From the NCBI GenBank assembly GCA_021786105.1, contig JAJYNW010000023.1, positions 1-13,428 of the forward strand: a DNA stretch of 13,428 bases, written 5' to 3'. Below the pieces are notes generated by a model that saw only the letters and a program-made list of their open reading frames with translations, made no database searches and was not told the DNA's origin. This document shows positions 3,184 through 3,591 of the stretch, piece after piece. This DNA comes from a bacterium. GTDB lineage: Bacteria > Patescibacteriota > Microgenomatia > Daviesbacterales > UBA10151. A program made the translations under genes and the position numbers. Positions within the stretch are counted from its first letter, which is position 1; every line of letters starts with the position of its first letter.

Positions 3184-3192
3184 TAATTCATT

Positions 3193-3220
3193 ATTATTAC
3201 GATCGTAATAGTTTTGTCAA
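3193..3220 (-). promoter_or_regulatory. sigma70-type promoter of the PaaX-like gene (short or no leader)
   Basis: Minus-strand TTGACA (3220-3215), 16-bp spacer, AATAAT (3198-3193); the ATG at 3183 follows within about 10 nt, with no Shine-Dalgarno. Confidence 0.55.
3195..3216. repeat. 22-bp direct repeat copy 2 with perfect 16-bp palindrome (putative operator)
   Basis: TATTACGATCGTAATA (3195-3210) is a perfect palindrome, followed by GTTTTG. Confidence 0.85.
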
Positions 3221-3245
3221 TTACCTACTATCACATTAGCTATTA

Positions 3246-3274
3246 TTGGAAAACTGTATAAAATGATATAAAAT
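3246..3274 (+). promoter_or_regulatory. promoter for tRNA-Thr(GGU)
   Basis: TTGGAA (3246-3251), 17-bp spacer, TAAAAT (3269-3274), 11 nt before the tRNA. Confidence 0.55.
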
Positions 3275-3285
3275 AAACTCCGTTT

Positions 3286-3530
3286 GCCGAAGTGGCTCAG
3301 TGGTAGAGCACGTTCTTGGTGATCGCTCAAATTGCCCATCCAAATAGTAATATCTGGATGAATTCCGAATAACGGTTAAAGATTTTTTTAAAAAAGATTC
3401 AGACCGTGGCGCTTAAAATGCGCCCGAACGACTGACAAGGAGGTCCTTTTTTTATAGAGAAAGGATCAAGATACAGTCTAGCCAAAAGCGAAGAACGGGG
3501 TCACGGGTTCGATTCCCGTCTTCGGCTCCA
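3286..3530 (+). tRNA. tRNA-Thr(GGT), intron-containing; exons 3286-3320 and 3491-3530
   Basis: The joined exons give a clean 75-nt cloverleaf: GCCGAAG/CTTCGGC, GCTC/GAGC, CGTTC-TT GGT AA-GAACG, ACGGG-TTCGATT-CCCGT, T, CCA. Confidence 0.92.
3321..3490 (+). ncRNA. group I intron, 170 nt, inserted at tRNA position 36/37
   Basis: The 5' exon ends in U and the intron ends in G. P2 CATCCA/TGGATG with a GTAA loop; P3 TTCC/GGAG; P4 ACGGTT/GACCGT; P5; P6 GGCGC/GCGCC; P7 A(C)GACTG 3428-3434/CAGTCT 3474-3479; P8 GTCCTTT/AAAGGAT; J8/7 plus P7' AAGATACAGTC matches the S element. Confidence 0.9.
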
Positions 3531-3591
3531 TTATTACAATCTTAGCAAACAACCCGTTCGGGTCTTTGGTCTCACAAATCCTGAGAAGAAA

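Follow-up and report, generated by a model that had tools for sequence, protein, structure and literature searches.

A 170-nt group I intron without a P9 hairpin in the tRNA-Thr(GGU) gene of a Patescibacteria genome

The split tRNA-Thr(GGU) gene

The window analysed here is a stretch of 13,428 nt from contig JAJYNW010000023.1 of assembly GCA_021786105.1, which belongs to a bacterium of the Patescibacteriota (Microgenomatia; Daviesbacterales; UBA10151). It carries a tRNA-Thr(GGU) gene whose anticodon loop is interrupted between nt 36 and 37, and the parts of the locus are the following:

3246 to 3274, forward strand: promoter-like site, TTGGAA-17-TAAAAT, a consensus match alone at nine of 12 positions, ending 12 nt upstream of the tRNA gene
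3286 to 3320, forward strand: 5' exon of tRNA-Thr(GGU), with the acceptor, the D arm and the 5' anticodon stem CGUUC, then UU and GGU
3321 to 3490, forward strand: group I intron of 170 nt, no ORF, beginning with G and ending with G
3491 to 3530, forward strand: 3' exon of tRNA-Thr(GGU), with AA, the 3' anticodon stem GAACG, the T arm, the acceptor, the discriminator and CCA

The 5' exon ends in UUGGU, the anticodon being last, and the 3' exon opens with AAGAACG at 3491 and encodes CCA at 3528-3530. A BLAST search against 41 related genomes gave some match in 23, and in seven relatives (G023, G011, G018, G017, G007, G024 and G010) the query parts 1-35 and 206-242 are directly adjacent. These seven intronless tRNA-Thr(GGU) genes demonstrate that the insert consists of exactly these 170 nt, with both ends fixed to the base. 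The same exon-intron junction was found in a genome of the same genus, G009. A DNA contig from an independent study spans 3291-3555 without any difference from the window, so the deletion of the P9 hairpin described below is not an assembly error. This DNA occurs in communities of mine drainage or tailings. The split gene was detected neither by ARAGORN nor by the Rfam tRNA model, and no ORF of at least 60 aa overlaps positions 3184-3591.

The genome to which the window belongs (G000) comprises 1.04 Mb in 26 contigs and is 92% complete. ARAGORN and model searches of this 92% complete genome found no tRNA-Thr(GGU) besides the split gene, and genes for tRNA-Thr(UGU) and tRNA-Thr(CGU) are present. 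The tRNA-Thr(UGU) gene lies in the window at 695-770, on the same strand and 2.5 kb upstream of the split gene at 3286-3530.

Fold, covariation and group I membership

Twenty-nine related introns, all at the same tRNA-Thr(GGU) site, were collected with model and pattern scans. Eight came from the 96 genomes of the window's family, in which the match of a ninth genome was a different intron. Scanning every species genome yielded 11 stretches that the model confirmed without exception; seven were already in hand and four were new. A phylum sample of 401 genomes supplied the other 17: there 21 genomes matched, namely G000, these 17 and three chance matches. The named records with close intron relatives belong to Candidatus Daviesbacteria and other Patescibacteria. 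The structure drawn for the window intron is composed of the following elements:

3318 to 3336, forward strand: P1 hairpin, exon GGU and intron GAU (3318-3323) with AUUGCC (3331-3336); loop L1 is CGCUCAA (3324-3330)
3337 to 3360, forward strand: P2 and its GNRA loop, 10 pairs with one A-C mismatch; L2 is GUAA (3347-3350)
3363 to 3366, forward strand: 5' strand of P3, UUCC, pairing with GGAG at 3439-3442; core pseudoknot with P7
3373 to 3406, forward strand: P4, 3373-3377 with 3402-3406, enclosing J4/5, P5 and J5/4
3381 to 3399, forward strand: P5, 3381-3388 with 3392-3399; eight pairs, all A-U or G-U
3408 to 3424, forward strand: P6 hairpin GGCGC/GCGCC; all four counted pairs change on both sides
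3428 to 3434, forward strand: 5' strand of P7, A(C)GACUG, with C3429 bulged; pairs with 3474-3479
3443 to 3466, forward strand: P8 hairpin, 3443-3452 with 3457-3466; two C-G pairs could receive L2
3467 to 3479, forward strand: J8/7 CAAGAUA and 3' strand of P7 CAGUCU, invariant in the family
3480 to 3489, forward strand: P9.0 region, G3481 and C3482 with G3488 and C3489, closing a CAAAA loop; stands where P9 should be
3490, forward strand: terminal (omega) G and 3' splice site; all 29 introns end in G

The minimum free energy (MFE) of the intron has a z-score of -5.1, and none of 200 shuffles folds equally well. Across the 29 introns, 94.9% of the cells of the drawn structure with its P3/P7 pseudoknot pair, versus 80.6% in shuffles; the value of 94.9% was reached by none of 500 shuffles, and slid partners gave at most 45.8%. 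Thirty-two of the 49 pairs change on both sides, and every helix contributes to this count except the invariant P7. In P1, the U3320-G3334 wobble marks the 5' splice site and is U-G in 29/29 introns, and two intron-side pairs covary. Nine of the 10 pairs of P2 change on both sides, and its GNRA loop is kept in 29/29 rows of alignment A5. P3 has just three to four pairs, three of four changing on both sides and the outermost one being unpaired in 10 of the 29 introns, and two-sided changes are also seen in each of P4, P5 and P8. All six pairs of P7 are identical in 29/29 introns; P7 and most joining strands are invariant and give no covariation. The sequence-only reading had proposed a 170-nt group I intron in a tRNA anticodon loop, with P1 to P8 all traceable, P5 nearly all A/U and a GNRA loop kept on P2, and these proposals are borne out by the intronless genes, the fold and the covariation.

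By analogy with the consensus of the Rfam group I model RF00028, G3430-C3478 is presumed to be the guanosine-binding pair. Docking of the GUAA loop of L2 on P8 is probably retained. The P8 helices of L060-L074, of the Patescibacteria-group intron (L049) and of the Yanofskybacteria intron (L045) combine a GAAA L2 with an asymmetric CUAAG...UAUG-like internal motif, and the family members with a GUAA or GCAA L2, the window included, have a plain P8 helix; it looks as if the receptor type switches together with the L2 loop type.

RF00028 itself gave no match at the window intron at the gathering threshold, none on 3250-3560 (311 nt) even at E <= 10, nothing at the window locus in a whole-genome search of G000, and none on six P9-bearing relatives at E <= 1. 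Group I membership thus rests on our own covariance model and on structure and covariation. This silence of RF00028 at any threshold tried is what could be held in favour of some other structured insertion that merely resembles a group I intron, an explanation that is close to refuted: the terminal G and the U-G wobble are there, as are a pseudoknotted core and J8/7-P7 strings close to the consensus, and these features covary; moreover, a covariance model, R1, built from the two introns of G000 and G009 bridges to an intron that RF00028 scores at about 90 bits. That intron lies in a tRNA-CAU gene of G002 and was matched by R1 at 37.3 bits and by RF00028 at 90.1 bits, which ties the tRNA-Thr family to accepted group I introns. 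In a by-eye comparison, the J8/7-P7' string AAGAUACAGUC differs by one base from the RF00028 consensus AAGAUAUAGUC, and the P7 string is GACUGACA versus the consensus GACUAAAc, the A-to-G change being offset by a U-to-C change on the other strand. By these sequence comparisons, we classify the window insert as a group I intron and a member of a Patescibacteria tRNA-Thr(GGU) 36/37 family.

Other group I elements were seen on the way. A different compact intron of the same genus (L040; G002:C59:24270-24447, minus strand), 188 nt by our reading, is inserted between nt 33 and 34 of a CAU-anticodon tRNA, and GUAA caps its P9. The sole RF00028 signal of G000 is in the 16S rRNA gene on another contig (L031; C8:11976-12212, minus strand) and, at 30 bits, stays under the cut-off. 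With a textbook AAGAUAUAGUC string and an ORF-like stretch upstream, this locus probably belongs with the rRNA group I introns reported for CPR bacteria. When G000 was searched for further group I cores by the S-like string, a group I context was found only at this 16S intron and at the tRNA-Thr intron.

Loss of P9 and the 3' splice site

A P9 hairpin is present in 27 of the 29 introns, between the invariant UAGCC that follows P7 and the last bases, and in these relatives its base is CCUCU/AGAGG, with five to six covarying pairs. The stretch from P7 to the terminal G measures 32-49 nt in these 27 introns versus 12 nt in G000 and G009, where it reads UAGCC AAAAGCG and lacks the hairpin plus the following U. 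As had been counted before, 10 nt, AGCCAAAAGC (3480-3489), separate the last P7 pair (3428:3479) from the terminal G at 3490, and the L9 contact noted earlier as missing is indeed absent, P9 and its loop being gone. The G000 intron is 170 nt and the G009 intron, 81% identical to it, is 158 nt, versus 186-243 nt for the other 27. In a tree built without the P9 columns, G000 and G009 form one branch (support 94/93) inside an eight-intron clade of the window's family (87/98), the other six members of which have P9. Nested among P9-bearing introns in this way, the loss of P9 is one derived event.

The pair of 158-170 nt comprises the smallest natural group I examples that we found. The earlier suggestion that the window intron may be near the natural size minimum therefore holds in part: the intron is unusually small, but at 170 nt it is not the smallest, the G009 copy having 158 nt. 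The Azoarcus intron, 205 nt, had been taken as the size benchmark, which does not suit this family, since P9-bearing members already have 186-204 nt. Our literature search found no tRNA intron without P9 and no natural group I intron below 186 nt, and the data set of Williams 2020 may contain such sizes. Among 241 million metagenome records, a set in which the window's own records may not be included, three matches to short-tailed variants were obtained, none of which fits the model, all being chance; a viral scan for P9-less copies gave one match, inside a coding region. In a class sample two of 151 genomes matched, namely G000 itself and one weak match of 29.4 bits, and an order-level search covered the same 96 genomes as the family and added nothing.

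P9 could have had a partner in L5. In the six P9-bearing introns closest to the pair, L5 has a shared word with UGC and L9 the matching complement; in three more distant introns the words are of the CAC/GUG type. Complementary G+C-containing words occur in L5 and L9 of all 10 nearest P9-bearing relatives; G000 and G009 are without the L5 G+C word of the six closest. This would fit a loop-loop clamp between L5 and L9 whose L5 half decayed after the loss of P9, and is offered as a lead only. As a role for P9, such L5-L9 kissing did not reach significance in a shuffle control outside two introns: matches of 4-5 nt were reached by 7-43% of the shuffles in seven introns, one intron has only a 3-nt match, and two stand out (8 and 79 of 2000 shuffles). 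Cross-pairings between different introns score equally well.

With P9 absent, the short tail itself contains the pairing that could place the 3' splice site. A 2-bp GC-CAAAA-GC helix in the tail had been interpreted as a vestigial P9, and alignment with the relatives shows instead that it is P9.0, the helix that flanks P9. In 27 of the 29 introns P9.0 is made of two standard pairs, among which three compensated types occur; the exceptions are the Yanofskybacteria and Gracilibacteria introns, with one mismatch each. The combinations of J7/9 bases and of the last two bases before the terminal G are:

J7/9 GC: last two bases GC
J7/9 AU: last two bases AU
J7/9 AC: last two bases GU
J7/9 GU: last two bases AC

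The earlier remark that no obvious P10 forms also stands: at most two A-U pairs (3491-3492 with 3332-3333) are available, and the relatives inspected do no better.

The last intron bases have a second possible partner. Inside the P1 loop or at its margin, the bases at intron positions 4-6 or 5-7 form a triplet that complements the last three bases including the terminal G, and the combinations are:

P1-loop triplet CGC: last three bases GCG
P1-loop triplet CGU: last three bases ACG
P1-loop triplet CAU: last three bases AUG
P1-loop triplet CAC: last three bases GUG
P1-loop triplet CUC: last three bases GAG

The match is full in 21 of the 29 introns, has one wobble in four and a mismatch in four. 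All 11 introns with a tail other than GCG (ACG, AUG, GUG or GAG) match best against their own tail type, nine of them fully, and none has CGC. In the window this pairing takes the form:

3324 to 3327, forward strand: L1 bases CGCU, complementary to AGCG at 3487-3490; seen in the MFE fold, as an alternative to P9.0

The L1-tail pairing and P9.0 are mutually exclusive. The former ties up the terminal G and so cannot be the catalytic arrangement; as a guess, it might be a holding position of the 3' end before the first step or a lock after splicing. No description of a covariation among the P1 loop, J7/9 and the tail was found in the literature.

Probable splicing after the loss of P9 and comparison with known introns

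The account that we consider likely is that the window intron is a member of the tRNA-Thr(GGU) 36/37 family that lost P9 and the next base by one deletion, in an ancestor shared with the same-genus species, and is still removed from the pre-tRNA. The intron would fold into the usual core, consisting of the P3/P7 pseudoknot, P4-P6 and P8; exogenous guanosine would attack after U36, at the U-G wobble of P1; and the terminal G3490 would then enter the P7 pocket, upon which the exons would be joined. The 3' splice site would be set by the terminal G, the 2-bp P9.0 (3481-82 with 3488-89) and the exon anticodon stem CGUUC/GAACG, and the pairing of the last intron bases with the P1 loop, 3-4 bp, may be an additional determinant that could not act alongside P9.0. 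The second outer clamp, from P9 to L5, would be lost.

Conservation after the loss is consistent with this account. Of the 53 columns outside P9 that never vary among the 27 P9-bearing introns, 52 are kept in G000 and likewise 52 in G009, the single miss being the deleted U; in a leave-one-out control the P9-bearing introns miss 0-4 such columns. The introns of G000 and G009 differ by 28 substitutions at aligned positions, and 13 of 46 modelled pairs differ, seven with two-sided and six with one-sided changes; all 13 are standard in G009 and 12 of the 13 in G000. In the exons, the changes found in the acceptor and T stems are compensated, and the anticodon loop is intact. In this one pairwise comparison of kin, such is the pattern of a P9-less RNA whose fold selection would still maintain, within a tRNA gene that would still be needed. 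The kept core, the seven two-sided changes and the intact exons suggest that the introns of G000 and G009 probably still splice. Over flanks of about 7 kb, only the tRNA and the intron match between G000 and G009, which does not separate descent from transfer; this synteny comparison also took in two intronless relatives.

The same data bear on the explanation that the gene is dead or dying, in which the P9 deletion crippled splicing, tRNA-Thr(UGU) and tRNA-Thr(CGU) cover the ACN codons and the locus drifts. The two other tRNA-Thr genes of G000 would permit this, P9 is described as essential in PMC3873408, a search for RNA runs containing the locus gave none, and no spliced joint across 3321-3490 was seen in four sequencing runs, one of them RNA. 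We nevertheless regard it as improbable, as both copies retain 52 of the 53 core columns that the family keeps invariant, the 28 substitutions include seven two-sided compensatory changes and leave no broken pair in G009, and the stem changes in the exons are compensated, with the anticodon loop intact. The sole matching RNA contig proved to be another tRNA, as its match is confined to the D-arm and T-arm parts, which are 63 letters apart in it.

A more serious rival is that the intron splices only with help, a host protein (synthetase-like or another RNA-binding protein) stabilising the fold or placing the 3' splice site where the clamp between P9 and L5 is missing. It gains from the absence of one outer contact out of the two that compact tRNA introns have, and from P3 having so few pairs and P5 only A-U or G-U pairs; many group I introns require protein cofactors according to PMC2813881. 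Yet no ORF lies in or beside the intron, P9-bearing relatives occur in similarly reduced genomes, which implies no special factor, and engineered constructs with only P9.0 react without protein in the experiments outlined in PMC11417360. We judge the need for protein help to be rather unlikely. Going further, the 158-170-nt RNAs could be the smallest natural self-splicing group I ribozymes, working without P9, P10 or protein, and the whole family could use a toggle between L1 and P9.0, in which the P1 loop would hold the last three bases during the first step, keeping the G from the pocket, and J7/9 would take them over in P9.0 for the second step. If true, it is through this toggle that the introns without P9 would manage to locate their 3' splice site; we put it forward as a tentative and rather doubtful extension.

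Members of the tRNA-Thr(GGU) 36/37 family in Patescibacteria share the same tRNA and site, the U before the intron and the G at its end, the 53 invariant columns, P1-P8, the L2 GNRA loop and P9.0. The other 27 members collected have P9 and 186-243 nt, unlike the introns of the window (170 nt) and of G009 (158 nt). Williams 2020 (bioRxiv 10.1101/2020.01.27.920355) gives 21 tRNA settings, and in PMC8172020 tRNAs of CPR bacteria are said often to carry group I introns that hide them from detection. The Azoarcus intron, 205 nt in length, has both P9 and P9.0 (PMC13168695). Like the window intron, it is a compact ORF-less intron of a tRNA anticodon loop with P2-P8 and P9.0, and no more than three exon bases enter its P1. 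It differs in that it has P9, and the introns of the window and G009 are 35-47 nt shorter and without P9, which makes the second clamp impossible; moreover, self-splicing is proven for Azoarcus and putative for the window intron.

The Azoarcus intron sits after nt 36 and has two tetraloop contacts, L2-P8 and L9-P5. Judged by such a pair of clamps, the mark of subgroup IC3 (compact bacterial tRNA introns), the window intron has the L2 GNRA loop and lacks the P9 partner. Group I ribozymes are a main model in the study of how RNA folds and catalyses, with the Azoarcus intron of 205 nt serving as the 'minimal' natural form. A natural pair of 158-170 nt, with relatives that keep P9, offers a ready comparison for the role of P9 and its clamp in folding, stability and the choice of the 3' splice site. 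The P9-less pair could also offer a smaller scaffold for ribozyme engineering, and the way in which P1 loop, J7/9 and 3' tail covary in this family provides a concrete hypothesis on what happens to the terminal G from the first step to the second.

The loss of P9 is not unique among group I introns. In the engineered circularising ribozymes with Tetrahymena and Pneumocystis cores, as sketched in PMC11417360, the site of the second step is likewise set by a short duplex by the terminal G, without P9, P9.1 and P9.2; the constructs described there are man-made, with large cores and a need for high Mg2+, whereas the window holds a natural gene. In the trans-spliced mitochondrial rnl intron of Prasinoderma, the P9 arm has been lost or replaced while sister introns keep it, as set out in a section of PMC3873408; in that account the intron, unlike the one in the window, is not in a tRNA and not below 200 nt. 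For help at the 3' splice site, the reference list of the review PMC3984707 cites Zaug et al., and here CGUUC with GAACG would be available. What our results add is twofold: P9 was lost by a derived deletion inside a single genus, and J7/9 and the P1 loop both covary with the 3' end.

As the tRNA finders and Rfam overlook the gene, tRNA-Thr(GGU) is wrongly scored as absent in such genomes. Among the 37 tRNAs that ARAGORN lists in G000, His and Tyr are not represented, nor are Gly(UCC) and Arg(UCU); these genes may lie in unassembled parts of the 92% complete genome or may be split by introns that the tools overlook. The intron mode of ARAGORN, which loses several ordinary tRNAs of G000, proposes a tRNA-Pro(GGG) with an 824-nt intron at C8:4620-5539 (minus strand), and this may be a ghost call.
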